Notes: generated by a model from the sequence alone, not told the origin. A stretch of DNA of 64,000 nt from a virus (IMGVR_UViG_3300033076_000838:111836-175835), one strand, 5' to 3'. Counted from the first letter of the stretch, positions 41,666-64,000 are shown. Program-made: numbers and translations.

Positions 41666-41686
41666 CCTTGCCCGTCTAAAATTCAA

Positions 41687-42152: not shown

Positions 42153-42165
42153 TAAAATTTAAACG

Positions 42166-42411: not shown

Positions 42412-42421
42412 AACTTAAACT

Positions 42422-42691
42422 ATGAAACGAATAATAATTGGATGTATATTGCTATCAGCATGTGGACCAATTCAGCCTGAATATGTAGATAAAGATGGTA
42501 AAGAATACGTGTTCATATCACATTGTGTCAAATCTCATACTGAAACTGATTATGGCTATCATTATGGATACAATACAATAAAGGGTGGGTTTGATTGGCA
42601 CTATGGTATGGATACTAAAACTATTTGTGATAGTTCAGTAGTTGATACGATTGAAATCAATAAAGATAAAAAATTCTACGCTAAGAAATAG
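42422..42691 (+). CDS. lipoprotein
   Basis: MKRIIIGCILLSAC lipobox. Confidence 0.45.
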   Translation: MKRIIIGCILLSACGPIQPEYVDKDGKEYVFISHCVKSHTETDYGYHYGYNTIKGGFDWHYGMDTKTICDSSVVDTIEINKDKKFYAKK

Positions 42692-42693
42692 TT

Positions 42694-43254
42694 ATGATGG
42701 TATATAGACGGTTTCAATATGAAGATGGATTAGATATTATTGCTCCTTTAAAACATGGAACTCGTTGGTTAGAAGAAGAAACACATCCAATTAAAATAAT
42801 AGAAGACCCACTATCCAAAGGAGAATTAAAAAAATATCCAATTAATGAAACTACATATTGGATATATAGAAATGGTAAAGACCATTTATTATCTGCTTTG
42901 ATGACAGAAATACGTGGTGCTATTGAATTTGAAACCGATGATATACAAACTATTATTGATAAATTTTTAAGTGGTGATACAACACATTGGTCATCAACTA
43001 CCTACAAAAAAATGTATCAGTATTGGAATATCCATAATTTTATACCAATACATCTATCAAATATTTCATCATTATTTAATGTTAGGTTTCAAAAAGAAAA
43101 ATATGAAATGCAATCTTATACCAAAACACCATACGATGTAAATTATATTATTGAATTAGTTGGTGATAAAACTTTAAATCAATTATTGAAAATGGTAAGT
43201 AAAGATGAAATTTATTTAAATATGATATTAACAAATACCCATAAAATAATTTAA
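42694..43254 (+). CDS. hypothetical protein
   Basis: ORF track. Confidence 0.45.
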   Translation: MMVYRRFQYEDGLDIIAPLKHGTRWLEEETHPIKIIEDPLSKGELKKYPINETTYWIYRNGKDHLLSALMTEIRGAIEFETDDIQTIIDKFLSGDTTHWSSTTYKKMYQYWNIHNFIPIHLSNISSLFNVRFQKEKYEMQSYTKTPYDVNYIIELVGDKTLNQLLKMVSKDEIYLNMILTNTHKII

Positions 43255-43936: not shown

Positions 43937-45106
43937 ATGGATAGTAAAGTTGATTTAACAAAATACGTTTGTAGAGCACCATTTGAAGATTTTATGGTTT
44001 TCAATAATTCTACTTGGTTTTGTTGTCCAGATTGGATGGAAATACCTTTTGAAGAATGGTCGATGATTACTGAAAATGAAACTGATAATTTAAAATCAGT
44101 TTGGTTTAATGATATTAATCAACGAGTAAGACAAGGTGTTTTAGATGGAACATATAAATATTGTTCTAAAACAAAGTGTCCGTATTTATCAAAATTAATT
44201 AATACCGATGAAAAAACTTTATTAAAACAATTTGAATCGGATGCCGGTAAATCAGTTTATTTTGGATATTTTTATAAAAGAAATGAATTTTTTAAAAAAT
44301 ACAATTTAAGTGAAACTGATAAAGAGTGGAAATTATTTCCTCGTCTTATTTACTTTAATTTTGATTATGCATGTAATTTACGATGTCCATCATGTAGATT
44401 AGATACTATAACAAATCGTAGAGATAAAGTGATAGACGGTATTATTGATGATATAAATAATCAATTTAGTGAAGATGTTGAAGTAATACATATGACAGGA
44501 AGTGGTGACCCATTTTACTCAAACGCATTTAGAAACTTTATGCAAACATTTGATGTAAAAAAATATCCAAAATTAAAAGCTATTTATTTAGTTTCTAATG
44601 GAAATATGTGGACACAAGAAATGTGGGAATCGGTAAAAGCAATTCATCCATATGTGTATGAATATGAAATTTCAATCGATGCAGCAACACGTGATACATA
44701 TGAAAATAAAGTAAGATTAAATGGTCATTGGGATACTTTAATTAAAAATTTAAAATATCATTCTACATTAAAATTCATAAATAGAAATTTTTCTTTTGTA
44801 GTACAAGACCATAATGTAGGTGAGATAAACAAATTTGTAAAATTGATTCAAAGTATATATGATTATAATGAAACACCATATACTATTACTTTTAGAGCAA
44901 TACAAGATTGGAATCATCAAACAAAAGAATGGATAAAGGAACGTTCAGTGCAAGACCCGTCCCACCCATTACACAACGTATTATTAGAACAATTAAGAGA
45001 ATTAGGTAACAAAAAATATGTAATACATAACTTTTGGCATTTATTGACGGAAGAACAAAAAACGAATGAAATTTTCGATGAACCAAAAAGAACAAAATTA
45101 ATATAA
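43937..45106 (+). CDS. radical SAM domain protein
   Basis: CNLRCPSC, a CxxxCxxC cluster at about aa 147. Confidence 0.5.
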   Translation: MDSKVDLTKYVCRAPFEDFMVFNNSTWFCCPDWMEIPFEEWSMITENETDNLKSVWFNDINQRVRQGVLDGTYKYCSKTKCPYLSKLINTDEKTLLKQFESDAGKSVYFGYFYKRNEFFKKYNLSETDKEWKLFPRLIYFNFDYACNLRCPSCRLDTITNRRDKVIDGIIDDINNQFSEDVEVIHMTGSGDPFYSNAFRNFMQTFDVKKYPKLKAIYLVSNGNMWTQEMWESVKAIHPYVYEYEISIDAATRDTYENKVRLNGHWDTLIKNLKYHSTLKFINRNFSFVVQDHNVGEINKFVKLIQSIYDYNETPYTITFRAIQDWNHQTKEWIKERSVQDPSHPLHNVLLEQLRELGNKKYVIHNFWHLLTEEQKTNEIFDEPKRTKLI

Positions 45107-46277: not shown

Positions 46278-46366
46278 AGAGAGTTGGCCGAGTTGGTTGA
46301 TGGCACCGGTCTTGAAAACCGGCAGATGTAAAAGTCTCGGGGGTTCGAATCCCTCACTCTCTGCCA
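46278..46366 (+). tRNA. tRNA-Ser (anticodon TGA), type II, CCA encoded
   Basis: Acceptor AGAGAGT/ACTCTCT, anticodon loop CTTGAAA, long variable arm, T-loop GGTTCGAATCC. Confidence 0.8.
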
Positions 46367-46370
46367 AAGT

Positions 46371-46580
46371 ATGATGTTAGAGTTCAAAAAACCAATACCA
46401 GTAGTAGTAGAAGGTAACAAAGATGGATACGCAATCTACGTTACTGATAGTGGTATGTTTGAAAATGATATTTGGTGTGTAGTATTATGTGATGGTGGTA
46501 TAGTTAGACATTACAATTCATCTCAAATAAGGATTTTTCATAACGCAACATTTGACATCAAAAAAGATAATAAATTGTAG
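46371..46580 (+). CDS. small hypothetical protein
   Basis: ORF track. Confidence 0.4.
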   Translation: MMLEFKKPIPVVVEGNKDGYAIYVTDSGMFENDIWCVVLCDGGIVRHYNSSQIRIFHNATFDIKKDNKL

Positions 46581-46748
46581 TGTGTTGGAATTGATTGTGT
46601 AATAACAATCGTGGCAGACAAGCCCTCCTGTCTCGGGGGTGGTGAGAACGAAATAGGTTAGTAATATGGGGTAGACCACCATCCGGCCGGAGAAGTGTTA
46701 TTAACTGAATCGCATCGTGGAGTGTTCGAATCCTCCCACTACAGCAAA
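46576..46748 (+). ncRNA. tRNA-like element of abnormal length (about 173 nt): canonical T-loop plus an acceptor-like pairing TGTAGTG/CACTACA
   Basis: 3' end GGAGTGTTCGAATCCTCCCACTACAG pairs with TGTAGTG at 46576, but the D and anticodon arms are not canonical. Could be an intron-containing or degenerate tRNA. Confidence 0.25.
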
Positions 46749-46770
46749 AGTAAAAAGTTCTTTAACATAT

Positions 46771-47116
46771 GGGGATGTCTGGTATTGACAGATATGAAGT
46801 GTTAGTACAACTGCAAGCAAGGTTAGATGGAAACCTTTGAATACCTATCAAACAATAAACGGCGTTAATAACTACGCTTTGGCTGCCTAATCCCAAAGGG
46901 AAAAGACAACCTCGGGTCGATGCACATTAAACCTCGGAACACAAGTGCTTACAAAGGTGGAAACCAATTGAACCCAAAATCGAATTGGAAACATTAATGA
47001 TAACGAATGTATAAATCTTTATCTATTTTGTTCAGTTAGAAAACGGAACTAAGCTTGTGAATGAAGTTTATTAAACCATATTTTGGACGGGGTTTCGATT
47101 ACCCCCATCTCCACCA
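46771..47116 (+). ncRNA. ssrA: tmRNA (SsrA), tag peptide (A)GVNNYALAA
   Basis: 5' GGGGATGTCTGGTATTGACAG and 3' GGACGGGGTTTCGATTACCCCCATCTCCACCA match the tmRNA tRNA-like domain, with a G3-U70 pair. Internal GGC GTT AAT AAC TAC GCT TTG GCT GCC TAA at 46861-46890 reads GVNNYALAA plus stop. Confidence 0.85.
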
Positions 47117-47276
47117 TTTTTTACGTTTTGTATATTTTTATATATTTATACATACGTTTTGGAATAAGGGTTGAAGCCAACAACTAATAAAACCGATTGT
47201 GTGAACATCTTTCCAACTTATTAGCGGAGGGGTTAAAAAGCCGGATACCCTTAATTCAAAAAAAAAATAAAAAAAG

Positions 47277-47314
47277 ATTTGGAAATATGAAAACTATTTC
47301 GTATCTTTACAAAG
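47277..47314 (+). promoter_or_regulatory. phage promoter (short form) driving the initiator tRNA
   Basis: GATTTGGAAATATGAAAACTATTTCGTATCTTTACAAAG. Confidence 0.5.
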
Positions 47315-47345
47315 TAAAAAGAAAACGTTCTTTAAAATATTATAT

Positions 47346-47417
47346 CGCAGGGTAGAGCAGTGGTAGCTTGGTGGGCTCATAACCCATAGGTCGGAGGTTC
47401 GAATCCTTCCCCTGCAA
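47346..47417 (+). tRNA. initiator tRNA-fMet (CAT)
   Basis: C1-A72 mismatch; three consecutive G-C pairs closing the anticodon stem (GGG-CTCATAA-CCC). Confidence 0.75.
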
Positions 47418-47442
47418 CTAAATAAAAAAACTTTAAAAAAGA

Positions 47443-47479
47443 TTTGGAAATATGAAAACTATTTCGTATCTTTACAAAG
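47443..47479 (+). promoter_or_regulatory. phage promoter (short form), duplicate
   Basis: Identical to the 47277 copy. Confidence 0.5.
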
Positions 47480-47535
47480 TAAAAGAAACCAACCAAACAA
47501 CACAACTATTTTTTAACAATTTAAACAATTAGTAT

Positions 47536-47694
47536 ATGACAAAGTTTTGGAAGTGGTTCGAAAAGTATGGATTTTTAGTTTTAGGTATTAGTAACCTATT
47601 ATGTTTTAATCCTTACAATGCAGTAATTGGGTTAGTATTTATTACCTGGTTTATTGTAGACAAAAAAAATAATAAAAAAGATTTGGAAAATTAA
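47536..47694 (+). CDS. small TM protein (52 aa)
   Basis: MTKFWKWFEKYGFLVLGISNLLCFNPYNAVIGLVFITWFIV...; its 3' end overlaps the next promoter. Confidence 0.3.
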   Translation: MTKFWKWFEKYGFLVLGISNLLCFNPYNAVIGLVFITWFIVDKKNNKKDLEN

Positions 47695-47719
47695 AAAAGT
47701 TTTCGTATCTTTACAAAGT
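47682..47719 (+). promoter_or_regulatory. phage promoter (short form) preceding the ORF-free RNA region
   Basis: GATTTGGAAAATTAAAAAAGTTTTCGTATCTTTACAAAG. Confidence 0.5.
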
Positions 47720-47759
47720 AATCAAACGGATTACAAAAAACGTTCTTTAAAATTATTGA

Positions 47760-49195
47760 AAATATTGTACATAGTAGACTTGTTCTACATAGTACATACC
47801 CGCCGCATATGGTGGTTAAATAAACTTGGAAACAAGGATAAAGTGAATACAATGGTTATTGTGTTTGCGGTTTCATCTTCGGATGGAGCTTGAGTATGCA
47901 AGTGGAATATCATTAGACCTGATTAGTGAGGGTAACTCCGTAGTGAAATGGTTTGATGACTGGGCTCTAGTAGAAGTTCAGTTGAGGTAGGAATATCAAT
48001 AAGAATAATCCATAGAGTTATTGCAAGAAGTAAGGACTTAATCTCTCCTTATCATTGCGTGATTCAATATTAGAGGTTGCTTAAAACCGAAAGGTATGTT
48101 GATGTACAGGTGGTGCTGTTATTTACCTTACCTACATCTCACCAAAGAGTGGGTAATGAAGTAATCTTAAAGTATGACGTTAGAGATAACGTATCGAGTA
48201 GTATAGTATTCCGTTCTTCAAAATGGAACGGAGCTAGTGGTAATCCACTACTTGAATTCATCTACAACCAAAACTCAATTTGCTATTGGTGCAAACTATA
48301 AACAAATAAAGAGAAAGAGGTTACCAGTTGCAGACGAAAGGTGTGTACATAGTAGGGAGTTGTTCCCTGCCACAAATCCCCTCAAAGGAGATGTGATTCT
48401 TTCGAAAAGCTTCTAGCACTGCGAGGTGTTAATCGGGTCGGCGGATTCGAAGAGGTAGAGTACGAAGAGAGTAGTTTGTAACTTTATGAGTGGTAGGCAT
48501 TACTTACCCACATTGAATTGGTACTTCTCAAAAGGAAGTGGAAATTAAGGCAACCCATAACCCTTATAAAGCTGGTTCACAATATGGAGTATTCTCATCC
48601 TTATATTTTTACAATGGTTGTATATTGGTTCGATTCCAATAGTAAAAGCTTCGTAGTGGTTTACGCCAGATTGGTTCGATGTACCTTCGAATAACTGAAT
48701 ACCACTTAAAATAAAAAAGAAAAAAGGTATAATGGTATGGTTTTCCGTAGGGGATTTTCGCCTTAAAGAATCTCAATGATACGAATTTAATTGATGGTAA
48801 GTAACGGATGTAGCTAGTCCTTTGAAAGAACCACCCTACAAAATCTTTCTTTTTTAAACGAACTAATCCTTCGAGGCTTATATTAACCAGAGCATGACTT
48901 GGATGGAGTATTTTGAAGATGGATTAGTTTTTTTATTTAGCTAATAACAAAAAAACAAACAAACGTTACGAAAAAATAATTTTTAGATATTTATAACAAG
49001 ATGAAAAACTTAGCATTACATACAAACAACCAATTACCTACACAAAGACGTGAGTGGGCTGGGAATTGTATGTTTAGTACGATAGTCCTTCCGCAAGCAG
49101 AATTGAATTTTGGCAAGGTAGATTATATTAGTACTCCGTTAAGGGAAGCATCAGGTTGGTAATGATGTAAGATTTAAATAGAAAATATTTGAAGA
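47760..49195 (+). ncRNA. candidate large structured noncoding RNA (about 1.4 kb ORF-free, GC-richer region inside the tRNA array)
   Basis: Promoter at 47682 and terminator at 49197-49229. No ORF longer than 75 aa on either strand. UUCG and GNRA-type hairpins such as CATCTTCGGATG, and tRNA-like T-loop fragments such as ATTGGTTCGATTCCAAT at about 48617. Confidence 0.4.
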
Positions 49196-49196
49196 A

Positions 49197-49229
49197 CCCT
49201 TAACTGATAAAAAAGTTAAGGGTTTTTTC
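49197..49229 (+). terminator. intrinsic terminator
   Basis: CCCTTAAC-TGATAAAAAA-GTTAAGGG plus TTTTTT. Confidence 0.6.
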
Positions 49230-49235
49230 GTATAA

Positions 49236-49307
49236 GGGTTGGTAGCTCAGAGGCAGAGCAATGGTCTGTTAAACCATAGGTCGAGATTTCGAAATTCTCC
49301 CTTCCCT
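49236..49307 (+). tRNA. tRNA-Asn (GTT)-like; acceptor stem has U4-U69 and U5-U68 mismatches
   Basis: D arm GCTC/GAGC, anticodon loop CTGTTAA, T-loop TTCGAAA; acceptor GGGTTGG/CCTTCCC is imperfect. Confidence 0.5.
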
Positions 49308-49325
49308 CAATTAGTTCTTTGATAT

Positions 49326-49397
49326 GCGAATATCGTATAGTGGTTATTACTCCTTCCTTCCAAGTAGGAGACGTAGGTTCGATTCCTACTATTCGCT
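49326..49397 (+). tRNA. tRNA-Gly (TCC)
   Basis: Acceptor GCGAATA/TATTCGC; anticodon loop CTTCCAA. Confidence 0.65.
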
Positions 49398-49405
49398 CAA
49401 TAAAT

Positions 49406-49477
49406 TGCCCGATGGTGTAATGGTTAGCATACATCACTTTGACTGATGTAGTATAGGTTCGAATCCTATTCGGGCAT
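49406..49477 (+). tRNA. tRNA-Gln (TTG)
   Basis: U1-A72; anticodon stem CATCA/TGATG; loop CTTTGAC. Confidence 0.7.
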
Positions 49478-49483
49478 CAATTA

Positions 49484-49559
49484 GGAGATTAGCTCAGTTG
49501 GTTAGAGCATTTGGTTTACATCCAAAGGGTCATAGGTTCGAATCCTATATCTCCTACCA
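49484..49559 (+). tRNA. tRNA-Val (TAC), CCA encoded
   Basis: Acceptor GGAGATT/ATCTCCT; loop TTTACAT. Confidence 0.75.
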
Positions 49560-49566
49560 TTTAAAT

Positions 49567-49648
49567 GCCGACGTCGCATAGTGGCAATTGCAAGGGACTG
49601 TAAATCCCTCCTCTTCGGAGTTCGTAGGTTCGAGTCCTACCGGCGGCA
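49567..49648 (+). tRNA. tRNA-Tyr (GTA), type II
   Basis: Anticodon stem AGGGA/TCCCT, loop CTGTAAA, long variable arm. Confidence 0.7.
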
Positions 49649-49656
49649 CAACAAAT

Positions 49657-49729
49657 GGAGCTTTCGTATAGCTGGTGCGTACGTTGGACTGAAAATCCAA
49701 AGGACGAGGTTCGATTCCTCGAGGCTCCA
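49657..49729 (+). tRNA. tRNA-Phe (GAA)
   Basis: Acceptor GGAGCTT/AGGCTCC; loop CTGAAAA. Confidence 0.75.
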
Positions 49730-49735
49730 CATAAT

Positions 49736-49809
49736 GAATCCGTAGCTCAGTTGGTTAGAGCACCTCACTTTTAATGAGGGAGTCAATGGTTCGAGTCCAT
49801 TCGGGTTCA
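49736..49809 (+). tRNA. tRNA-Lys (TTT)
   Basis: Acceptor GAATCCG/CGGGTTC; loop CTTTTAA. Confidence 0.75.
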
Positions 49810-49814
49810 CATAT

Positions 49815-49890
49815 AGGGTAATAGAGGAGTCCGGTCTATCTCGCTTCGTTTGGGACGAAGAGCACGCAGGTTCGAATCCTGCTTACCCTA
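49815..49890 (+). tRNA. tRNA-Pro (TGG)
   Basis: Acceptor AGGGTAA/TTACCCT; anticodon stem CTTCG/CGAAG, loop TTTGGGA. Confidence 0.7.
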
Positions 49891-49896
49891 CAACAC

Positions 49897-49970
49897 TGGT
49901 AGTTAGCTCATTTGGTTAGAGCATCTCGCTGATACCGAGAAGGTGGCAGGTTCGAATCCCGCACTACCAA
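49897..49970 (+). tRNA. tRNA-Ile (GAT)
   Basis: Acceptor TGGTAGT/ACTACCA; loop CTGATAC. Confidence 0.7.
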
Positions 49971-49981
49971 CTTTGAAATAC

Positions 49982-50052
49982 ACGAGTATGGTGCAATGGT
50001 AGCATACGGCTCTCCAAAAGCTTTGATGTGGGTTCGAATCCTACTACTCGTG
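49982..50052 (+). tRNA. tRNA-Trp (CCA)
   Basis: Acceptor ACGAGTA/TACTCGT; loop CTCCAAA. Confidence 0.65.
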
Positions 50053-50115
50053 CTAAATGAATAAAACTATGAAACAATTATTTGACAAACATTAGGTAAC
50101 GAAACCTAATGTAAA

Positions 50116-50307
50116 ATGAAAGAAGAAAAAGTAAAAAAAATGAATGCAATCTACAACTATTGTATGATTTGCAACAAACGAAATGGTAGTTGGTACTATG
50201 ATTGTCACCCATCATCATTTGGAGCAAAAAGACATGGTAGTGGTAAGATTGTAAGAGTAAGAGAGTGTAAAAGTTGGAAACACAACCGAAAGACTCAATG
50301 GAAGTAA
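50116..50307 (+). CDS. small basic Cys-containing protein embedded in the tRNA array
   Basis: ORF track; CMICN...C...C. Confidence 0.35.
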   Translation: MKEEKVKKMNAIYNYCMICNKRNGSWYYDCHPSSFGAKRHGSGKIVRVRECKSWKHNRKTQWK

Positions 50308-50311
50308 AGAT

Positions 50312-50383
50312 AGTTCCGTAGTTTAACGGATAGAACAATTGGCTACGAACCAGTAAATGGGAGTTCGATTCTCTCCGGAACTA
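50312..50383 (+). tRNA. tRNA-Arg (ACG)
   Basis: Acceptor AGTTCCG/CGGAACT; anticodon stem ATTGG/CCAGT, loop CTACGAA. Confidence 0.7.
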
Positions 50384-50390
50384 CACAATT

Positions 50391-50463
50391 GTCAGGTTGG
50401 CCGAGATGGTTTAGGTGGTGCTCTGCAAAAGCATTTACGTTGGTTCGAATCCAACACTTGACT
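50391..50463 (+). tRNA. tRNA-Cys (GCA)
   Basis: Acceptor GTCAGGT/ACTTGAC; loop CTGCAAA; short D stem. Confidence 0.6.
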
Positions 50464-50468
50464 CAGAT

Positions 50469-50538
50469 TGCGTGACTTAGTGGAAAAGAGTTATCTCTCA
50501 TAAGGATGACCAATTGAGTTCGAACCTCAAACACGCAA
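50469..50538 (+). tRNA. tRNA with CAT anticodon (elongator Met or Ile2 type); D arm atypical
   Basis: T arm TTGAG-TTCGAAC-CTCAA; loop CTCATAA; acceptor TGCGTGA/ACACGCA. Confidence 0.45.
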
Positions 50539-50543
50539 CATAT

Positions 50544-50629
50544 AGAGAGTTACCCAAGTTGGTGAAGGGGCCTGTTTGCTAAACAGGTAGGATGTAAAAG
50601 TCGCAAGAGTTCGAGCCTCTTACTCTCTA
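50544..50629 (+). tRNA. tRNA-Ser (GCT), type II
   Basis: Acceptor AGAGAGT/ACTCTCT; loop TTGCTAA; long variable arm. Confidence 0.75.
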
Positions 50630-50649
50630 CGGAAAAAAATAATACTTAT

Positions 50650-50723
50650 GTCCGTATGGCGTAATTGGCAACCGCACTGGTCTTAGAAACCAGTTTGTGT
50701 AGGTTCGAATCCTACTATGGACA
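50650..50723 (+). tRNA. tRNA with TAG anticodon (reads CUA, Leu by the code) but with a short, type-I variable arm
   Basis: Acceptor GTCCGTA/TATGGAC; perfect anticodon stem CTGGT/ACCAG; loop CTTAGAA; 5-nt variable loop. Confidence 0.55.
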
Positions 50724-50748
50724 CAAAACTAAAAAAAAAGGTAATACT

Positions 50749-51207
50749 ATGGTTTTTAAAAAATTACAATCGAAAGAAGAAATCCAATTGGTTCAGTACA
50801 TTAAAGAGTATATGGAATTAAATACTGATGCTGAGATATTGATTGGTTGTGATTCACAAAACTCTCGTAGTAAAACTATTTACGCAATTGTAGTAGCATT
50901 ATATAGACCGGGTAAAGGTGGTCATGTTCTTTATAGAAAATGGAGTACTGAAAGAGAAAGAGTTCGTTCTATTAGATTATTACAAGAAGTTTGGTTTGCA
51001 ATTGAAACTGCAGAATACTTAAAAGAGAATGGTGTTAAAAAACCTAAGTGGATTGATGTGGATTTAAATCCAGACCCACGATACAAATCTAATGAGGTAT
51101 TCAGACAGGCAGTTGGTATGGTTGAAGGTATGGGATATTCAGTAAGGTATAAATCCTTAGGTCCTATTGCAACATATTGTGCTGACCATTTAGTAAAAAA
51201 TAATTAA
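50749..51207 (+). CDS. hypothetical protein, possibly an RNase H-like fold (weak)
   Basis: Start trimmed to the ATG after the tRNA (the ORF-track start lies inside the tRNA). ILIGCDSQNS...YAIVVALYRPGKGGHVL is weakly RNase H-like. Confidence 0.4.
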   Translation: MVFKKLQSKEEIQLVQYIKEYMELNTDAEILIGCDSQNSRSKTIYAIVVALYRPGKGGHVLYRKWSTERERVRSIRLLQEVWFAIETAEYLKENGVKKPKWIDVDLNPDPRYKSNEVFRQAVGMVEGMGYSVRYKSLGPIATYCADHLVKNN

Positions 51208-51214
51208 ACAAATG

Positions 51215-51252
51215 TTTGGATATATTAAAATAAATTCGTATATTTGTTAAAC
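51215..51252 (+). promoter_or_regulatory. phage promoter cassette
   Basis: TGTTTGGATATATTAAAATAAATTCGTATATTTGTTAAAC. Confidence 0.5.
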
Positions 51253-51279
51253 AATTAGGGAGAACGTTCCCTAATACAT

Positions 51280-51350
51280 CGCGAGGGGGAGGTAAGGTAT
51301 TTCATTGGTCTCATAAGCCAAACTAAGTGGGTTCGATTCCCACCCTACGC
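51280..51350 (+). tRNA. tRNA with CAT anticodon (Met or Ile2 type); acceptor and D arms imperfect
   Basis: Anticodon stem TTGGT/GCCAA, loop CTCATAA, T arm GTGGG-TTCGATT-CCCAC. Confidence 0.45.
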
Positions 51351-51371
51351 AACAAAAAAATGTTAAAAAAG

Positions 51372-51409
51372 ATTAGGAAATTTAAAAATTATTTCGTATC
51401 TTTACAATG
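51372..51409 (+). promoter_or_regulatory. phage promoter (short form) driving tRNA-His
   Basis: GATTAGGAAATTTAAAAATTATTTCGTATCTTTACAATG. Confidence 0.45.
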
Positions 51410-51439
51410 TTCTTTGAGATGATGGTTAGTAAGTAATAT

Positions 51440-51514
51440 GGTGTTTGTAGCTCAACTGGTTAGAGCATCCGATTGTGGTTCGGAAGGTTGTGAGTTCGAA
51501 ACTCATCATTCACC
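51440..51514 (+). tRNA. tRNA-His (GTG) with G-1; acceptor has U4-U69 and U5-U68 mismatches
   Basis: Extra 5' G pairing with C73; D arm GCTC/GAGC; loop TTGTGGT. Confidence 0.65.
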
Positions 51515-51587
51515 CAAGGGGTTTTCAGTCCCAAGTGCTGGTTAGATGAAACACGCTATCCGTATGAGCCCATCAAAACTGAAACTT

Positions 51588-51659
51588 GCTCGGTTCGACA
51601 AGCGGTTAAGTCACGTCCCTTTCACGGATGAGTCACGGGTTCGATTCCCGTACCGAGTA
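51588..51659 (+). tRNA. tRNA-Glu (TTC)
   Basis: Acceptor GCTCGGT/ACCGAGT; anticodon stem CGTCC/GGATG; loop CTTTCAC. Confidence 0.6.
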
Positions 51660-51962
51660 CAAGACATACATCAGCCACATTAATTCCTTCAACCATATTG
51701 AGAGGTTAGTGTATGTTTAGGTAAGAGAGAAGAAGTGGTTGGGACATCTCTTTTACCGATAATATTGTATCAAATGTGCAGTGAAAATTGATGTAGGCAT
51801 ACATTGATGAGGTGGGTTCGATTCCCGTTTAATAATTCTTAGGTCAAAAGCCGGAGGAAGAAGCCAAGTAATTGAGAACACATTATAGCCGGAGTGGGTG
51901 TGCACCTCGTCTAGAGACCCTAATAGTTCCTAATAGGTCGGTATGGAACTGATACATAATTT

Positions 51963-52035
51963 GCCTCCTTAGCTCAGTTGGTAGAGCATCTCATTTGTAA
52001 TGAGAATGTCACTGGTTCGAACCCGGTAGGAGGCT
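51963..52035 (+). tRNA. tRNA-Thr (TGT)
   Basis: Acceptor GCCTCCT/AGGAGGC; loop TTTGTAA. Confidence 0.75.
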
Positions 52036-52329
52036 CGAGTGGATTCATCAGTTGATGAAAACCAATCGGGGGTTGTCCCACTAGAATGGAAACATCCCCT
52101 GCAAATAATGGCTCTATAATTGTTGAGGTCGCACCAAAAGCAATGAGTGGGTGAATGATGATTGAATGTAGCAATCTCCTTAATACTAGGATTGGAGTGT
52201 AAAATTGTTCATACATTTAGTAAGTAGTTCATAAGATGGGTTCGATTCCCATTAGAGTCTCAATGATTACTGAAATTGAATGATACGAGTCCTCAAAGTT
52301 CGAAAAGAGTCAGGCAGTAATCGTTATTT

Positions 52330-52406
52330 GGTGTATTGGTGTAGAGGCCCAACATGCTTCCCTGTCACGGAAGAGACCACGAGTTCGAATCTCGTATACA
52401 CCGCCA
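52330..52406 (+). tRNA. tRNA-Asp (GTC), CCA encoded
   Basis: Acceptor GGTGTAT/ATACACC; anticodon stem CTTCC/GGAAG; loop CTGTCAC. Confidence 0.75.
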
Positions 52407-52407
52407 T

Positions 52408-52479
52408 GGCTCCATAGGTAAAGGGATATACCGCCTCTCTTCTAAAGAGGATTTTCAAGTTCGAGTCTTGATGGGGCTA
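52408..52479 (+). tRNA. tRNA-Arg (TCT)
   Basis: Acceptor GGCTCCA/TGGGGCT; D stem GGTA/TACC; loop CTTCTAA. Confidence 0.7.
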
Positions 52480-52526
52480 CATAACATTAAAACATTAAAC
52501 CTTAAAATAAACCAAAACAAAATTGT

Positions 52527-52937
52527 ATGCAAAATCTTTTTATTAGTATTATTATGTTGTTTTTACCATTAGAGGTTACGACAACAAATGTAGAAATTGA
52601 AGAAAGTAGTAATTTAGAAGAGTTAGGAGTAGTGACGGTCACAACTTACAAACCAACATCAGGAGAAACTGATTCTACACCAAACGTTACCGCAAGTGGA
52701 TTTAAGATTAGTAAGAAGAATCCTAAGAAACACCGAATCATCGCAGTAAGTCGTGATTTAAAACGTAAGTTAAAATTCGGACAGAAAGTTCGATTGAAGA
52801 ACGCAGGTAAGTATAATGGTGAGTATGTTGTAAGGGATGTAATGAATAAGAGATATAAAAAACGTATTGATATTCTAATCAACCCAAAAGACAAACAAAC
52901 AAAACTTTCAAAAGTGAAAGTCTATAAAGTGAAATAG
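52527..52937 (+). CDS. 3D-domain (MltA / YuiC-like) cell-wall hydrolase-like protein
   Basis: TTYKPTSGETDSTPNVTASG...IIAVSRD...LKFGQKV...GEYVVRDVM...RIDIL matches the three-Asp 3D-domain pattern; N-terminal signal segment. Confidence 0.5.
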   Translation: MQNLFISIIMLFLPLEVTTTNVEIEESSNLEELGVVTVTTYKPTSGETDSTPNVTASGFKISKKNPKKHRIIAVSRDLKRKLKFGQKVRLKNAGKYNGEYVVRDVMNKRYKKRIDILINPKDKQTKLSKVKVYKVK

Positions 52938-52942
52938 AGTTT

Positions 52943-53028
52943 GCCCCGATGGAGAAACTGGTAGACTCGCAGCACTTAAAATGCTGTTCGCCGTAAGGAG
53001 AGTGCAGGTTCAAATCCTGCTCGGGGCA
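52943..53028 (+). tRNA. tRNA-Leu (TAA), type II
   Basis: Acceptor GCCCCGA/TCGGGGC; loop CTTAAAA; long variable arm. Confidence 0.8.
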
Positions 53029-53131
53029 CAATGTAATGATTCGAAAGAATAGCGGAACGGATGCTAAGAATGAAATGGAAACAATTGAAGCTCGTATAAA
53101 GGAGTGAATTTGAAACAAACCGCACAGACAT

Positions 53132-53215
53132 TACATTATTTGGGGGTGTAGCTCAGTTGGCTAGAGCACTTGCCTTGCACGCAAGGGGTCGTGGGTTCGA
53201 GTCCCTCCTCCTCCA
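53132..53215 (+). tRNA. tRNA-Ala (TGC) with G3-U70; U6-U67 mismatch
   Basis: Acceptor GGGGGTG/CTCCTCC; loop CTTGCAC. Confidence 0.65.
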
Positions 53216-53267
53216 CTATCGTTGATATAAACGATAAAAACTATTATCATCAATATAGATGATATTA

Positions 53268-53344
53268 GGGCTTGTAGCTCATTCGGTTAGAGCAACTGAC
53301 TCATAATCAGTAGGTAATAGGTTCGATTCCTATCTGGCCCACCA
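53268..53344 (+). tRNA. tRNA-Met (CAT), CCA encoded; U6-U67 mismatch
   Basis: Acceptor GGGCTTG/CTGGCCC; D arm GCTC/GAGC; loop CTCATAA. Confidence 0.7.
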
Positions 53345-54671: not shown

Positions 54672-55031
54672 ATGAAAAGAAGAACCTTTACAACAATCGA
54701 TTGGAGAAGATACTTAGAACCAACTAATGATAAACGCGTTGAAAAGTTTTTAGAGGCCAGAGGGTTTGATGTAATGAATCAGGTTTCTCAAAATATTCAT
54801 AACGCAGGATTGAAAGGTTGGGATGAAGTGGCAATATTAGTTCATCCTAATGCATCTGCAATATCATTAGTTCCAAAAGAAGAATATATAGAGGCATTAG
54901 ACCATTGTTTAGAATGGTTCAAAAATAAAGAAGAATATGAGATGTGTGGAAAAATCGTAAAGTATAAAGAAGACATACTTAACTATAAGAAACCGGTGAG
55001 GAAGAAGAGAGAAAGTAAAAAGTTAATTTAA
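54672..55031 (+). CDS. hypothetical protein
   Basis: ORF track. Confidence 0.45.
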   Translation: MKRRTFTTIDWRRYLEPTNDKRVEKFLEARGFDVMNQVSQNIHNAGLKGWDEVAILVHPNASAISLVPKEEYIEALDHCLEWFKNKEEYEMCGKIVKYKEDILNYKKPVRKKRESKKLI

Positions 55032-58364: not shown

Positions 58365-58844
58365 ATGAACAAAAAAATTATTTACATTGACATGGATGGT
58401 GTGTTGGTCGATTTAAAGGCCGAGTTTGACAAGTGGTTTGAACGTCATCCACATTTAGTTGATAAATACAAAAAATGTCCTGACCATATTCCTGGTATTT
58501 TCCGAATTCCCCCACCAATCGAAGGGGCAGTTGAGGCAGTTAAGAAATTGGCAGAAAGTGGAAAGTACGAATTGTTTATCGCTACCGCAGCACCGTGGGG
58601 AAACCCTGATTCTGCTTCCGATAAACGATATTGGGTTGAGGAATACTTTGGAAACATCTTCCACAAACGAATGATTGTTACTCACCGAAAAGACCTTTTA
58701 ATGGGCGATTACTTAATTGATGACCGATTAAAGAATGGGGCCGGAGAATTTAGAGGTGAATTATTACGATTTGGTTGGGCGTATGAGAGTGAAACTTGGA
58801 ATGAATATCCAAATTGGGAATCAATCTTAAACAAATTGTTATGA
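58365..58844 (+). CDS. 5'(3')-deoxyribonucleotidase-like HAD hydrolase (NT5C type)
   Basis: IIYIDMDGVLVDLKAEF N-terminus. Confidence 0.5.
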   Translation: MNKKIIYIDMDGVLVDLKAEFDKWFERHPHLVDKYKKCPDHIPGIFRIPPPIEGAVEAVKKLAESGKYELFIATAAPWGNPDSASDKRYWVEEYFGNIFHKRMIVTHRKDLLMGDYLIDDRLKNGAGEFRGELLRFGWAYESETWNEYPNWESILNKLL

Positions 58845-60394: not shown

Positions 60395-60509
60395 CTGACA
60401 AGTTGTCAAATGAATTTTTAAAATACTGACAATATGTCATATAATATCGATTGGTATGGATATTGTATAATATGTGGTATATTGTTTAACTAAAAAAAAG
60501 AAAAAGATT

Positions 60510-60905
60510 ATGTACACAGCAAATTTAAACCATTTATTAGATTTATTTGAAAAAGATTTACCAAAATGGCCAAACTGGACAACAACAACAATCAACGAAT
60601 CTCCGTTAGGATATGTCAAACAACATGATGATTCATATCAACTTGCGTTTGATGTAGTAGGACATTCAAAAGAATCAATCAATATTGATGTAGAAGGAAA
60701 CCTTTTAAAAATCAAAGCAGAAACTAAATTAGAAGAAGATTCTATTCTTAAAAATTTGGTTTCAACTATAAACCATTCGATTCGTATTTCAAATACATAT
60801 GATATTACACAAACATCTGCTGAGGTGGAAAATGGTATCTTATTAATCAGTATTCCAAAAAAGGAAGAAGCAAAACAAAAGAAAATTTCAGTAAAAGTAA
60901 AATAG
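60510..60905 (+). CDS. small heat-shock protein (Hsp20 / alpha-crystallin family)
   Basis: YQLAFDVVGHSKESINIDVEGNLLKIKAE ... GILLISIPKK is a typical ACD; start trimmed to the second ATG. Confidence 0.55.
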   Translation: MYTANLNHLLDLFEKDLPKWPNWTTTTINESPLGYVKQHDDSYQLAFDVVGHSKESINIDVEGNLLKIKAETKLEEDSILKNLVSTINHSIRISNTYDITQTSAEVENGILLISIPKKEEAKQKKISVKVK

Positions 60906-60927
60906 TTTTAGTATCTCTCTCTCATAA

Positions 60928-60957
60928 AAGGTCATCATTATATGGTGGCCTTTTTTA
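60928..60957. terminator. bidirectional intrinsic terminator between convergent gene blocks
   Basis: AAGGTCATC-ATTATAT-GGTGGCCTT, flanked by T-runs on both strands. Confidence 0.55.
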
Positions 60958-61338
60958 TATTAAAGAATTGGTGTAGTTATTACCAAAGTTTTTTAAGATT
61001 ATGTTATTGAAATATTGTTTATAAAAAACACCTGCAGGAGCATTTGTTAAGATTTCCATAAATACATAATCAACAACAATTTCATCTCCAACATTTATAT
61101 TACAATTTGCATATAAATCATATCCATCTAAATTGATGGTTTCTTTTACATAGGTATTTGGTGTATTTGAATGATTACAATATCTACCCAACTCTCTATC
61201 ATACCATCCGTAAATATTTTTTGGATATTCTTTAATCGGTGTATTTTTATAATATTCACCTATGAATTCATCTTTTACAAATATCTTTGTTGCAAATACT
61301 GCTTTACCTTTTATTTTAGTATCTAAGATAGAATACAT
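60955..61338 (-). CDS. SET-domain protein (putative protein-lysine methyltransferase)
   Basis: RYCNHSNTPN (NHSxxPN motif) and the C-terminal GDEIVVDY post-SET-like block. Confidence 0.5.
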   Translation of the reverse strand: MYSILDTKIKGKAVFATKIFVKDEFIGEYYKNTPIKEYPKNIYGWYDRELGRYCNHSNTPNTYVKETINLDGYDLYANCNINVGDEIVVDYVFMEILTNAPAGVFYKQYFNNIILKNFGNNYTNSLI

Positions 61339-61955
61339 TATAATAAATGTTTTAAACTATCATCACTATAAAAATCAACACCATTAAATTTCGTATGCCA
61401 TATGACATATTGGTTGTTTTGAAATAATCGATGGTGTTTCCATGAATCTGGCCAAGATGCTACCTCTTCATCGGTAAACGTTATAATTTCAGAATTTAAT
61501 TTACTATTAGGGTGATAGTGTGCATAATAGGTTAATATTGTCCCTTCTTTACAATTAGGTTTAACCATATCCATAAAAAATGGAAGATTTCCATCAGTAT
61601 CGGTATCAAAATATACACCATCAAATTTTTTATCTTCTAATGGTAATACATCTACCCAATTACCAAAAATAACATTTATTGGTATAGTTTTTGTCTTTGC
61701 CCATTCTAATGCTCGTTGATATTGTTGTGGATGAATTTCTATGACAGTATAAGATGTTACGTTTGGATTACTTGTAATGAAATCTGCAGAGATGTGCATA
61801 CCAAATCCTAACTCTAAAATATCACCACCATTTTGTATAGTAATTTCTGCCATACGTTTTGATATTTTAGTTTCACATACGTGCATTATTGTATGATTAG
61901 TTTCTGGATTATAAATCCCCTCATCAGTAATAATAATATTTTCAGTTCCGTTCAT
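61338..61955 (-). CDS. class I SAM-dependent methyltransferase-like protein
   Basis: GGDILELGFGMH, a glycine-rich motif I. Confidence 0.45.
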   Translation of the reverse strand: MNGTENIIITDEGIYNPETNHTIMHVCETKISKRMAEITIQNGGDILELGFGMHISADFITSNPNVTSYTVIEIHPQQYQRALEWAKTKTIPINVIFGNWVDVLPLEDKKFDGVYFDTDTDGNLPFFMDMVKPNCKEGTILTYYAHYHPNSKLNSEIITFTDEEVASWPDSWKHHRLFQNNQYVIWHTKFNGVDFYSDDSLKHLL

Positions 61956-62659
61956 TACAATATAGTTGTTGGTTTATTTAAGTTTGGATGTTTTATATAA
62001 ATAGATGATTTTTGTAATGAGTTGAAATCTAATAATGTTAAATCATTTTCTGGTTTATATGTTGGAATATATTTGTTAATTTTATAATCGGTATCTAATA
62101 AAAATTTATAAAACCATACCCAAACTGATTCATTTGGTTTTGAATTTGACTTTCCTTTTACTTGTCTAATATTACCACTTTCAGTTTCATATACAATTAT
62201 CATATGACTTATATTTGAATCTTTGGTTTGTTCTCTTAACTCTAATGTAGTATGACCGTAATTTACTCTACCACAATCCTCCATTCTAAGCATGGATTCA
62301 ATACAAAACAATTTTTGTAAATCTATCCAATAAAATCCAATCCCATTTTCTCTATAATCTAAAATAATTTTATTTTTCTCTATATAATTTTGAGTATCGT
62401 AGGTTTTTTTATATTGATTAAAAAAATTTATCCATATATTTTGAATTTTGGTTAATGATATTGCATCTAATGATTCATATGATATAGTTGTGGAATCTAC
62501 ATAATTACAAAGATGATATACCATATTTATTATATCCGATTTTTTTATGGAATTAATATCATCAATATCATTTTTCAACTTATTAAAAATAATACTACCC
62601 AAATCTGGTCCTAATATTTTATAAATCTCTTGCTCTCTTTTGGATAATTTGCTTGACAT
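61955..62659 (-). CDS. hypothetical protein
   Basis: ORF track; translationally coupled to its neighbours. Confidence 0.45.
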   Translation of the reverse strand: MSSKLSKREQEIYKILGPDLGSIIFNKLKNDIDDINSIKKSDIINMVYHLCNYVDSTTISYESLDAISLTKIQNIWINFFNQYKKTYDTQNYIEKNKIILDYRENGIGFYWIDLQKLFCIESMLRMEDCGRVNYGHTTLELREQTKDSNISHMIIVYETESGNIRQVKGKSNSKPNESVWVWFYKFLLDTDYKINKYIPTYKPENDLTLLDFNSLQKSSIYIKHPNLNKPTTIL

Positions 62660-63267
62660 TATATTAAAGTTTTATCAGATTTTTTATAAAATTCTACATT
62701 TACATCGTATTGTATCGATTGCGATTTGATTTTATTTATATCGTTTAAATTACTTATATCAAATCCGTTTTCGATTAAAAAACTAATTGATGTTTCTAAA
62801 TCATTACATACGTTTTTATATAATTCATTATTTAAACTTACTTCAATTTTACCTGCACGGATTGATTGTAATTTATCACCAAATGATTTTAATATTGTCA
62901 AATCATTACCTTGTGCATCGCAGTGAAAATAATCAATAATATCAATATTGTTTTGAATTAAAAATGTATCCATTCTAATAACATCAACCAATACTTGAGA
63001 TACATATTTAATTTTGGTATTCTCTTTTGAAAATGTAGATAATTCATATAAAGATGATGATTGTCCATCTGCTGAAATATTAAATGTGGATGTGCCATCA
63101 AAATCACTAACAGCCTTTTCTATTATTTGAATGTTTGTATTATTTTTAAATTTATATCGTAATGTTTTTGCAAGAAATGGATTTGGTTCAAATGACCATA
63201 TTATAGCATCTTTGAAAAACTTAGAAGTATTACCACCATCATTAGCACCGATTTCTATTATATTCAT
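62659..63267 (-). CDS. FkbM-family methyltransferase
   Basis: MNIIEIGANDGGNT N-terminus. Confidence 0.5.
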   Translation of the reverse strand: MNIIEIGANDGGNTSKFFKDAIIWSFEPNPFLAKTLRYKFKNNTNIQIIEKAVSDFDGTSTFNISADGQSSSLYELSTFSKENTKIKYVSQVLVDVIRMDTFLIQNNIDIIDYFHCDAQGNDLTILKSFGDKLQSIRAGKIEVSLNNELYKNVCNDLETSISFLIENGFDISNLNDINKIKSQSIQYDVNVEFYKKSDKTLI

Positions 63268-63965
63268 TATAATATTTTTTTAGTGTTATTAAATCTACTT
63301 GTAACATTTTTCTCGGCCATATGACATAATCCATTTGAATCTAGATTTTCATATGATGGGTTTTCGTTAAATAAATAATTTATATCCGTAAAATACAAAT
63401 TTGGATATTGTTGATTCAACGTTATAGGTGGAATAGTATTATATCGTTTAGAAAAAAAATCGTAATTAATATCTATGATATTTAATACTTCTGAATATGC
63501 TTTATTAATCAATTCGTATTTGTTTGTAGATAATATGGATGTATTATTTAATTCGGTAAATTCTAATTTATTAATAGAATATTTTTCAAAAATATATTCA
63601 AAATCAGATATAGCATTTAATTTAATAGGATGTTTGTAACACAGATTTAATTTATCTGGAATTATTATTTTATCTAATTTACTAAAATCTTTAATAATCA
63701 AATCATTATCCAAATGAATGAATGGTCTATCTATTAGTGATAATACTTTTAATTTTGGATAAGACCATAACGTATCTATTTTATATTTAGTATCAACATC
63801 AAATTCAATCCAATTATATTGTAGTGATGTATTTTTAAAATAATCAATATCCGAATATATGGTTGGGATTATACCATATGTATTTAGATTTTGAATAGAA
63901 TATCTTAAATACACTTCTGTCACATCTTTTAATCTTATAGGTAAGTAAGTGAATACAACATCCAT
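63267..63965 (-). CDS. hypothetical protein (possible glycosyltransferase-like)
   Basis: ORF track; first gene of the minus-strand cassette. Confidence 0.4.
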   Translation of the reverse strand: MDVVFTYLPIRLKDVTEVYLRYSIQNLNTYGIIPTIYSDIDYFKNTSLQYNWIEFDVDTKYKIDTLWSYPKLKVLSLIDRPFIHLDNDLIIKDFSKLDKIIIPDKLNLCYKHPIKLNAISDFEYIFEKYSINKLEFTELNNTSILSTNKYELINKAYSEVLNIIDINYDFFSKRYNTIPPITLNQQYPNLYFTDINYLFNENPSYENLDSNGLCHMAEKNVTSRFNNTKKIL

Positions 63966-64000
63966 TATATTAAAGATTGTTTTGTAGTGGTTGATGTATT

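Follow-up and report, generated by a model that had tools for sequence, protein, structure and literature searches.

A SET-domain gene ends a 16-gene tailoring island whose enzymes share a C-terminal tetrapeptide in a virus resembling uncultivated jumbo phages

The viral sequence IMGVR_UViG_3300033076_000838:111836-175835 (64,000 nucleotides; the whole stretch of DNA that was analyzed, hereafter the window) ends in a block of five genes on the minus strand. These genes are described here together with the larger operon to which they belong and a short C-terminal sequence (the tag) which is common to most of the enzymes encoded there. The listing of open reading frames (ORFs) placed the five genes at 60955-61338 (ORF1), 61338-61955 (ORF2), 61955-62659 (ORF3), 62659-63267 (ORF4) and 63267-63965 (ORF5), in exact agreement with an earlier interpretation made without database searches (the sequence-only reading), and the peptides quoted there (NHSNTPN, GDEIVVDY, ILELGFGMH and IEIGANDGGNT) are all present in the ORFs. 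The four junctions uniformly read TAATG, a 1-nt overlap in which one base is common to each stop codon and the next start codon, as expected for the translational coupling that had been proposed. Upstream of ORF5, the 3′ end of the next gene of the island (f415, 415 amino acids (aa), ending in TKQSLI) occupies positions 63965-64000 on the minus strand and is truncated by the window edge.

At its other end, the block meets the plus strand at a hairpin terminator (60926-60954, assigned to neither strand), which lies between the SET-domain gene ORF1 and the convergent HSP20 gene (60474-60905, plus strand). The hairpin comprises 13 bp with a 3-nt loop and is flanked by an A-run and a T-run (AAAAGG...CCTTTT). 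Three terminator-like sites were found in this region, compared to 0.7 expected from shuffled sequences. The GC skew changes from about +0.2 to −0.06 at the strand switch, and the GC content goes down to 23% over the block. Since the other ORFs of 90 aa or more on the minus strand of the window lie mostly within longer plus-strand ORFs, the five genes form the only clear minus-strand block. Both this singular position and the separation from the plus strand by a terminator had been noted in the sequence-only reading and are confirmed.

ORF1, the last gene of the operon, encodes a minimal SET-domain protein of 127 aa. The Pfam profile PF00856 was matched with an E-value of 7.9e-9 and 36.3 bits (gathering threshold, GA: 22.4) over model positions 5-104 of 105. 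The best matches in the PDB were Set2, NSD, SETD8 and MLL, with E-values of 8e-4 or weaker over the region RYCNHSxxPN...EIVVDY. In 16 SET homologues the residues K10-G11 (KG..VF), R52-Y-C-N55-H56, N61-T-Y63 and E86..V89.Y91 were found to be invariant. The hallmark motifs of the SET family, RxxNHSxxPN and ExxxxY with the catalytic tyrosine, are thereby conserved in ORF1. In the N-terminal GxG motif for binding of S-adenosylmethionine (SAM), K10 and G11 are invariant and the second glycine is replaced (KGKAVFA, KGxSVFA). The SET-domain assignment made earlier is borne out by the Pfam score and the invariant motifs, and the reservation attached to it, that a SET-like motif might find no profile support, is removed by the match above threshold. 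ORF1 is thus a putative protein-lysine N-methyltransferase.

SET methyltransferases had been considered rare in phages, which is consistent with a tblastn search in which no ORF1-like SET relatives were found among 50,697 GenBank phage records. No description of a SET domain in jumbo phages was found in the literature; one paper on a Stenotrophomonas phage lists a SET-domain ORF, without study of that ORF. ORF1 resembles vSET (A612L) of the chlorovirus PBCV-1 and the minimal SET proteins of bacteria and archaea in consisting of a SET domain of about 120-130 aa without pre-SET and post-SET modules, and the motifs RxxNHSxxPN and ExxxxY of these proteins are also kept. It differs from vSET in showing no specific sequence affinity to it, in its likely host, a bacterium without histones, and in its position at the end of a 16-gene operon and the C-terminal tag of the island which it bears.

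ORF2 (205 aa) had been called a class-I methyltransferase. The methyltransferase part of this assignment stands, and the protein can be placed more precisely in the guanidino N-methyltransferase type represented by guanidinoacetate N-methyltransferase (GAMT) and RMT2. Human and rat GAMT were matched in the PDB over residues 23-118 with E-values of 1.5e-10 to 5.6e-9 (3orh best), and ORF2 and its orthologues have a precomputed match to PF27704, GuanidinoAc_N-MeTrfase (E<=1e-5). Generic methyltransferase models of Pfam gave sub-threshold matches only. Motif I of the protein is ILELGFGMH. E28 (CET) and D117 (FDT), which are invariant in 10 homologues, align with Glu45 (WET) and Asp134 (YDT) of GAMT, the residues which we take to bind and deprotonate the guanidino group. 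On the basis of the GAMT match, the PF27704 match and the conserved Glu and Asp, ORF2 is assigned to the GAMT/RMT2 type by its sequence, with a free guanidino compound or protein arginine as candidate substrates. The carboxylate-binding region of GAMT falls outside the alignment. ORF2 shares motif I, (V/I)LE(V/L)GFGM, and the guanidino Glu and Asp with GAMT and with yeast Rmt2, the delta-N-arginine methyltransferase; compared to these it is shorter and adds a C-terminal extension that bears the tag. The tblastn search against GenBank phages gave one match only, in a 634-kb uncultured phage in which the neighbourhood of the gene is not an island, and no close relatives were found in the GTDB species genomes.

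ORF3 (234 aa) had been listed as unknown and is now described, from a confident structure model, as an N-terminal helical bundle followed by an alpha/beta core similar to GNAT and MYST acetyltransferases. Two independent structure searches ranked acetyltransferases of the GNAT superfamily at the top, namely the MYST enzymes Esa1, MOF and Tip60 as well as HAT1, ESCO1 and NatD. A sequence Q-x-K-G is located at the same place as motif A of the GNAT enzymes (Q/RxxGxG/A), between a beta strand and a helix. Q166, K168 and G169 are invariant at this strand-helix junction, and the final G/A of motif A is not conserved (QVKGKS). Membership in a Pfam acetyltransferase family was not obtained, as no Pfam model, including Acetyltransf_* and MOZ_SAS, was matched at E<=1. 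PDB profiles gave nothing beyond a chance-level match to ENTH, and no acetyltransferase domain was found in distant ORF3 homologues. The model makes ORF3 a possible acyl-CoA N-acyltransferase.

The domain family of ORF3 has at least 1016 representatives at E<=1e-3. Mostly, the domain forms the N-terminal half of phage proteins of 500-560 aa, and in some cases it is part of giant polyvalent-type proteins with InPase, RNA-ligase and cytidylyltransferase domains. In BFVD, the ORF3 model matches phage proteins labelled 'PcfJ-like'. Three unrelated viral contigs (L026 13019-16915, L029 13442-18180 and L030 9678-13161) carry a 555-aa protein with an ORF3-like domain; on these, there is a tandem run of four or five genes (270-400 aa each) which share the ending (L/F)KNI(E/K)(L/I); this may be a second, different shared C-terminus or may just reflect paralogues.

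For ORF4 (202 aa), the assignment to the FkbM family of SAM methyltransferases holds, with scores above the curated thresholds for both PF05050 (E=1.9e-12, 48.1 bits, threshold 22.7) and TIGR01444 (E=2.9e-17, 63.4 bits, cut-off 37.7). The protein also matches phrog_8156 (methyltransferase) with an E-value of 4e-16. ORF5 (232 aa), the second protein listed as unknown, could be refined to a DUF6734-like protein with an invariant DxD (D86, D88); its match to DUF6734 (E=1.5e-3, 18.5 bits) stays below the GA of 27. Compared to bona fide DUF6734 proteins flanking related islands, the identity is 25-28%, with F82, D86 and D88 invariant. From these features ORF5 is possibly a nucleotide-sugar-type transferase. 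A narrower assignment as a GT-A glycosyltransferase, for which the invariant DxD was the sole indication, was not retained; no PDB profile was matched.

Although the five genes had been regarded as a cassette of their own, they are the promoter-distal end of a 16-gene co-directional operon of about 11.4 kb, which we call the tailoring island. This follows from a Logan contig (L001/L013), which shares 100% identity with the window along 3046 bp, encodes the SET protein and carries 11 more upstream genes that are co-directional and mostly overlapping. The start of the operon is preceded by a divergent intergenic region which is AT-rich, conserved and about 87 nt long. The first part of the upstream genes consists of a 2-oxoglutarate (2OG) oxygenase, a homologue of the FAD-dependent Trp-halogenases, the 2OG oxygenase f216 (phrog_81) and f253. 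A 95-aa Cys-rich protein, f492 and the 45-aa f45 are encoded in the middle, followed by an SGNH/DUF6071 hydrolase, a third 2OG oxygenase, f174 and f415. The 2OG domains of the island are of the P4H type (2OG-FeII_Oxy_3). At the DNA level, the five genes and 21 kb of flanking sequence matched GenBank phages in a tRNA only. Defence profiles of PADLOC gave no family at E<=0.01 for the five window proteins, f492 and f415.

The protein f174 and its relative f215 are sulfotransferase-like, with profile matches to SULT1B1, CurM-ST and NodH, the Pfam families Sulfotransfer_1/3 in some members, and an N-terminal PRTGS motif. Related islands also contain a gene resembling the kinase for adenosine 5′-phosphosulfate (APS). 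The sulfotransferase-like and APS-kinase-like set is located at L013 6897-7421 (f174), L008 8664-9311 (f215), L008 2607-3035, L006 109-351 and L010 877-1314. The presence of sulfotransferase-like proteins alongside an APS-kinase-like gene implies sulfation by the phage that depends on 3′-phosphoadenosine 5′-phosphosulfate.

The most widespread and most conserved component of the island is f492 (L013 3867-5345), a protein of 492-512 aa. It was found in at least 545 clusters with 64-88% identity and on contigs of up to 324 kb; relatives were absent from GenBank phages (tblastn), and none were found in GTDB genomes, so that the GTDB scans for f492 and for the GAMT-like protein gave no indication of the host. 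The protein ends in a tail of about 27 aa, CWCPWN(W/Y)CG..C....CP.C..G(G)..K(L/I/V), located after an invariant His-Asn; this tail may represent a zinc knuckle or a peptide that is released or modified. The AlphaFold2 model has a confidence (pLDDT) of 48 and is too low for use. A Hint/intein-like C-terminal module, suggested by the invariant His-Asn, found neither a Pfam match at E<=1 nor a PDB profile match and is kept as a lead only, and an N-terminal ATP-grasp domain, suggested by ETNTN, was not supported. Directly after f492 lies f45 (L013 5369-5506), a conserved ORF of 45-50 aa with the pattern M..(R/K).ERP...IK...P....K.K......Q..VN.IK.KHL(S/G), in which ERP and the positions of Lys and Pro are conserved and which ends without the tag. 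The protein f45 is a candidate substrate or adaptor. No core biosynthetic enzyme of the type known for ribosomally synthesized and post-translationally modified peptides (RiPPs) was detected in the island with Pfam, PHROGs or the PDB.

For the comparative analysis, fifteen further related loci were taken from ENA, JGI, Logan and IMG/VR, and presence and tag counts were determined over 11 islands. At least 17 unrelated enzyme families occur across the islands of this lineage, including radical-SAM-like proteins and SGNH hydrolases. ORF3, the GAMT-like gene and the SET gene are kept in four divergent loci, adjacent in three of them and in shuffled order; in L006, the GAMT-like gene is located at the island start. 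Over the 11 islands the presence of the three genes is nested (ORF3 > GAMT-like > SET), and the SET gene was never found without the other two. They constitute a module that is co-inherited across related uncultivated low-GC jumbo phages. The FkbM gene, which is present in only 2 of the 11 islands, ORF5 and f415 are variable members. The co-occurrence in related phages that the sequence-only reading had offered as a check is seen for the ORF3/GAMT-like/SET module, with FkbM and ORF5 as variable add-ons.

Two of the loci, L010 and L019, are near-identical, and L019 lacks exactly the GAMT-like and SET genes. At about 10672-10730 of L019 (compared to 8710-10387 of L010), about 37 nt from the SET 3′ end have been retained, namely the part coding for the tag. 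As the breakpoints of this deletion lie at gene 3′ ends, the tag-coding ends may also serve as recombination points. A complete island was also observed on L023 (IMGVR_UViG_GVMAG-M-3300009164-63_000001), a contig labelled by IMG/VR as a giant-virus metagenome-assembled genome, which is probably a mis-binned phage contig. An island of this kind was not found described in the literature, nor were DUF6734, DUF6071 and DUF6171.

The tag was determined to be K(-4) [S/K/T/N](-3) [L/I](-2) [I/L](-1)-COOH. A C-terminus of the form [LIVM][LIVM] was found in 109 of 113 island enzymes from 17 unrelated families at 11 loci, in none of 26 proteins of the groups f492, f45, APS kinase, DUF2061 and DUF6734, and in 8 of 53 neighbouring genes (Fisher p=1.5e-27). 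These counts include orthologues, which are not independent of each other, but the motif is carried by all 17 families. In the window, the five minus-strand genes encode the tails N-S-L-I (SET, 60958-60969), K-H-L-L (GAMT-like, 61341-61352), T-T-I-L (ORF3, 61958-61969), K-T-L-I (FkbM, 62662-62673) and K-K-I-L (ORF5, 63270-63281). Downstream of the SET tag only the terminator and no gene follows, and 16 of 16 SET homologues end in K/N-x-L/I-I/L/V. The GAMT-like tag lies on a C-terminal extension which is absent from a huge-phage homologue (L014). The ORF3 tag corresponds to residues 231-234, the sole segment with a pLDDT below 50 in the model and accordingly a disordered tail.

Codon choice for Leu, Ile, Ser and Thr at the tag shows the same variation as in the gene bodies, and each of TAA, TGA and TAG occurs as the stop codon of tagged genes. 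The same logo was obtained for 4-nt overlaps of the type ATGA (25), for 1-nt overlaps (41) and for other junctions (47). Synonymous variation and independence from the overlap register indicate selection at the protein level. The tag is also retained outside the island by a 389-aa radical-SAM-like protein (43937-45106, plus strand, ending in R-T-K-L-I), which is homologous to the gene f355 of the L006 island (E=2e-73; weak Radical_SAM match, E=1.6e-5) and is located 16 kb from the island on the opposite strand. Homologues outside the lineage, namely the huge-phage GAMT-like protein and the halogenase and 2OG oxygenases of HTVC008M, lack the tag. Five further plus-strand proteins have tag-like tails, which end in KKKLL (1085-1939), SIKLI (an AAA_33 kinase, 26716-27138), THKII (42694-43254), SKKLI (54672-55031) and LNKLL (an NT5C protein, 58365-58844). 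These proteins could belong to the tagged set as dispersed members, or the likeness may be due to chance.

Known C-terminal signals were compared with this logo. The peroxisomal targeting signal PTS1 has the consensus [SAC][KRH][LM], endoplasmic reticulum retention is conferred by KDEL, and encapsulin cargo-loading peptides contain LxxGSL; the tag fits none of the three. A common C-terminal tetrapeptide on 17 unrelated enzymes was not found described in the literature.

Apart from the island, the window has a GC content of about 31% and contains 25 tRNA genes, a tmRNA, a GOLLD RNA and genes for PhoH, NAMPT, an RNA ligase and HSP20. The tRNA genes and the tmRNA form an array on the plus strand (46278-53344). 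Within it, the tmRNA (46771-47116, plus strand) encodes the tag peptide GVNNYALAA, and a full-length GOLLD RNA (RF02032; 48194-48601, plus strand; 261.5 bits, GA 150) lies just downstream of the tmRNA. G-initial tmRNA peptides ending in NYALAA resemble what we take to be the tags of Bacteroidota, which serves as a host lead only. A PRPP-synthetase-like protein and NAMPT constitute a pair for NAD salvage (28188-31047, plus strand). The next gene (31068-32942, plus strand) encodes a 624-aa SPFH/Band-7 protein, which shares 64% identity with a protein of the 642-kb uncultured phage LR756502.1. Island genes were found on contigs of 200-324 kb. The gene content, the SPFH relative and the contig sizes fit an uncultivated jumbo phage. 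Jumbo phages of freshwater Bacteroidota have been described with genomes of 293-331 kb, a GC content of 31-34% and 5-25 tRNAs (PMC9723584), and by analogy a freshwater member of the Bacteroidota is a lead for the host. Two regions (9188-14307 and 40008-42694) contain only short ORFs (below about 125 aa) on both strands.

A glycan block had been proposed at the start of the window, with a possible connection to the methyltransferases. Pfam does not clearly identify one there. The genes found are a P4H-type 2OG oxygenase (2690-3475), a 210-aa DegT/DnrJ-like aminotransferase fragment (3476-4108) and a DUF6071 protein (4108-4830), all on the plus strand, and four large ORFs at 4811-9188 matched neither Pfam nor PHROGs. 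This block (2690-4830) has only family types (2OG, DUF6071) in common with the island and carries no tag, so that the proposed link is weak.

From the observed gene structure, synteny and tag statistics we infer a function of the tag and the identity of the substrate; all enzyme activities named below are predicted ones, based on the observed families and the conservation of catalytic residues. The reading that we tentatively prefer, at somewhat less than even confidence, is that of a tag-addressed multi-enzyme system which modifies protein or peptide side chains. A conserved core combined with variable tailoring genes, one tag on the enzymes, and an untagged, cofactor-supplying kinase together with f492 and f45 as untagged, conserved non-enzymes suggest recruitment to one macromolecular partner. 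The tetrapeptide would act as a short address or docking motif which brings the enzymes to this common partner. The simplest candidates for the partner would be f492 and f45, and a shared hub or compartment is also conceivable. At this site, a protein or peptide would receive numerous covalent marks on its side chains from the enzymes. ORF3, ORF2 and ORF1 could represent a nested accessory module for N-acyl, guanidino-N-methyl (Arg-type) and Lys-N-epsilon-methyl marks, respectively, and ORF4 and ORF5 variable extras for O- or N-methylation and possibly glycosyl transfer.

The enzyme types suggest that amino-acid side chains are mostly addressed, as judged from family assignments: Lys by the SET protein, guanidino groups by ORF2, amines by acylation through the GNAT-like protein, Pro and others by the P4H-type 2OG oxygenases and Trp by the halogenase homologue. 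Sulfation, O- or N-methylation, an esterase and possibly glycosyl transfer are suggested as added chemistries of the island. A more specific version, a protein-addressing code of this freshwater jumbo-phage lineage's own, in which the tag on at least 17 enzymes recruits them to f492 and/or f45 and leads to a protein or peptide heavily decorated by halogenation, hydroxylation, sulfation, acylation and methylation of Lys and Arg, seems doubtful to us at present.

Several other explanations were weighed against the tag-addressed system. If the tag were a nucleotide-level by-product, caused by a re-initiation or Kozak-like A-rich context for translation in Bacteroidota, which lack Shine-Dalgarno sequences, or by a short recombination site for the shuffling of cassettes, the genes would be unrelated morons. 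This would be in line with the overlap of 66 of the 109 tagged genes with the next start codon, with the shuffled gene order between loci and with the L019 breakpoints at gene 3′ ends; moreover, the sequence AAA NNN TTA ATA TAATG puts A at positions −3, −6, −12 and −13, where it reportedly favours initiation in Flavobacterium. However, the amino-acid logo is identical in the three overlap registers, only 49% of the last codons in the non-overlap class have A as their third base, and synonymous codons vary as described above. A preference for NNA codons does not explain the specificity for Leu and Ile. The tag is also found on 26 genes that either lie more than 10 nt from the following gene or have none after them, the terminal SET gene among them, and on the dispersed homologue on the opposite strand; of 10 coupled gene pairs in other parts of the window, 7 lack it. 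A coupling or Kozak-like origin is therefore largely rejected, and this explanation as a whole is very unlikely. It appears unlikely as well that the enzymes are host-takeover effectors which hit separate host proteins (ribosome, nucleoid, RNA polymerase, elongation factors), with the tag as a packaging, ejection or stability signal by which the enzymes would be delivered along with the DNA or turned over on schedule. SET and RMT2-type enzymes typically methylate abundant nucleic-acid-binding or ribosomal proteins, and Lys-rich tails with a hydrophobic end resemble the C-motif-2 degrons of ClpX, such as RRKKAI of MuA. The ORF3-like domain in large phage and polyvalent-type proteins and the 'PcfJ-like' matches in BFVD point in the same direction, as does the established modification of host RNA polymerase or ribosomal proteins by phage GNATs and ADP-ribosyltransferases (PMC7824862). 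On the other hand, halogenase, sulfotransferase-like, SGNH and FkbM enzymes would be an unusual choice for effectors that are injected, this reading offers no explanation for the tight link to f492 and f45, which are untagged and highly conserved, and known capsid-targeting signals of phages, such as that of T4, are N-terminal.

In a broader form of the sequence-only reading, the island could also tailor glycans or small molecules, namely a secondary metabolite or the methylated, sulfated or acylated sugars of a surface polymer on virion or host, with the SET protein as the odd one out. FkbM, the DxD-containing ORF5, SGNH/DUF6071 and the sulfotransferase-like and APS-kinase-like genes are typical of polysaccharide tailoring, the natural substrate of GAMT is a small molecule, and the L006 island abuts GT1/GT4, GT9 and GT2 genes as well as a GT-FkbM fusion. 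These glycosyltransferase genes are, however, untagged, FkbM and ORF5 are variable rather than conserved parts of the island, and there is little support for a glycan block at the start of the window. Amino-acid side chains are instead the targets suggested by the P4H-type 2OG oxygenases and the Trp-halogenase homologues, and all characterised SET-domain enzymes are, to our knowledge, active on protein side chains. Glycan or small-molecule tailoring is thus distinctly unlikely. Extremely improbable is a post-replicative hypermodification of DNA, in which the tail would tether the enzymes to a replisome hub (the sliding clamp) for the synthesis and decoration of an amino-acid-bearing base. Some tags read Q-x-S-L-I and are loosely similar to the clamp-binding motif QL[SD]LF, but as a clamp-binding motif the tag was rejected, its sequences being a misfit and Gln not being conserved. 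Known phage clusters for DNA hypermodification include kinase, 2OG oxygenase, radical SAM, GNAT-like, methyltransferase and glycosyltransferase-like genes, and Mom is a GNAT (PMC7824862). Against this, signatures of a hydroxymethylase, a TET/JBP-type oxygenase or an aGPT-Pplase were not found, the 2OG domains are of the P4H type, and SET and Trp-halogenase homologues have no known precedent on DNA.

The tag-addressed system of the island can be compared to several known systems. T4-like cyanophages and the pelagiphage HTVC008M carry a halogenase homologue directly beside a P4H-type 2OG oxygenase and several 2OG paralogues, as in the island, and the HTVC008M halogenase is the best annotated relative of the island halogenase (36% identity). 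In these phages, f492, f45, SET, GAMT-like and ORF3 genes are missing and the enzymes are untagged. Clusters for natural products and RiPPs likewise combine a conserved core with variable halogenase, hydroxylase, methyltransferase, sulfotransferase and acyltransferase genes; the small conserved f45 beside the large f492 with its Cys/Trp-rich tail after the invariant His-Asn is the parallel in the island. In contrast to RiPP clusters, the island has no recognisable core biosynthetic enzyme or RiPP recognition element, its candidate peptides (f45 and the f492 tail) are conserved rather than hypervariable, it is found in a lytic-type jumbo phage, and recruitment would occur via the enzyme tails and not via a substrate leader. 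The concept of a short shared C-terminal address is known from PTS1 (-SKL), KDEL, encapsulin cargo-loading peptides, dockerins, PDZ ligands and the C-motif 2 of ClpX substrates. Compared to these, K-[STKN]-[LI]-[IL] fits no consensus that we are aware of, the tag is phage-borne, and its receptor is hypothetical.

The island enzymes are new members of known families, and clusters of halogenase and 2OG genes are already known in cyanophages and pelagiphages. A co-inherited phage module of SET, GAMT/RMT2-type and GNAT-like proteins and the f492/f45 core were not found described in the literature, and the operon may be the first in a phage to combine SET, GAMT/RMT2-type and acetyltransferase-like proteins in such a module.

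In cyanophages and pelagiphages, islands rich in 2OG oxygenases and halogenase homologues have been catalogued for more than ten years, with no substrate known for them. The tag provides a handle on such a system, as it marks the members, including the dispersed ones, and sets the enzymes apart from the untagged substrate or hub candidates f492 and f45. The module of SET, GAMT/RMT2-type and acetyltransferase-like proteins is of interest for the remodelling of protein chemistry by viruses in bacteria. Should the tag prove to be a portable address signal, it might also serve for the co-localisation of enzymes. If the proposed addressing code is true, it would be a viral counterpart of targeting in the manner of PTS1 or dockerins, with a eukaryote-like trio of 'writers' (SET, RMT2-type and MYST-like) in a bacterial cell.

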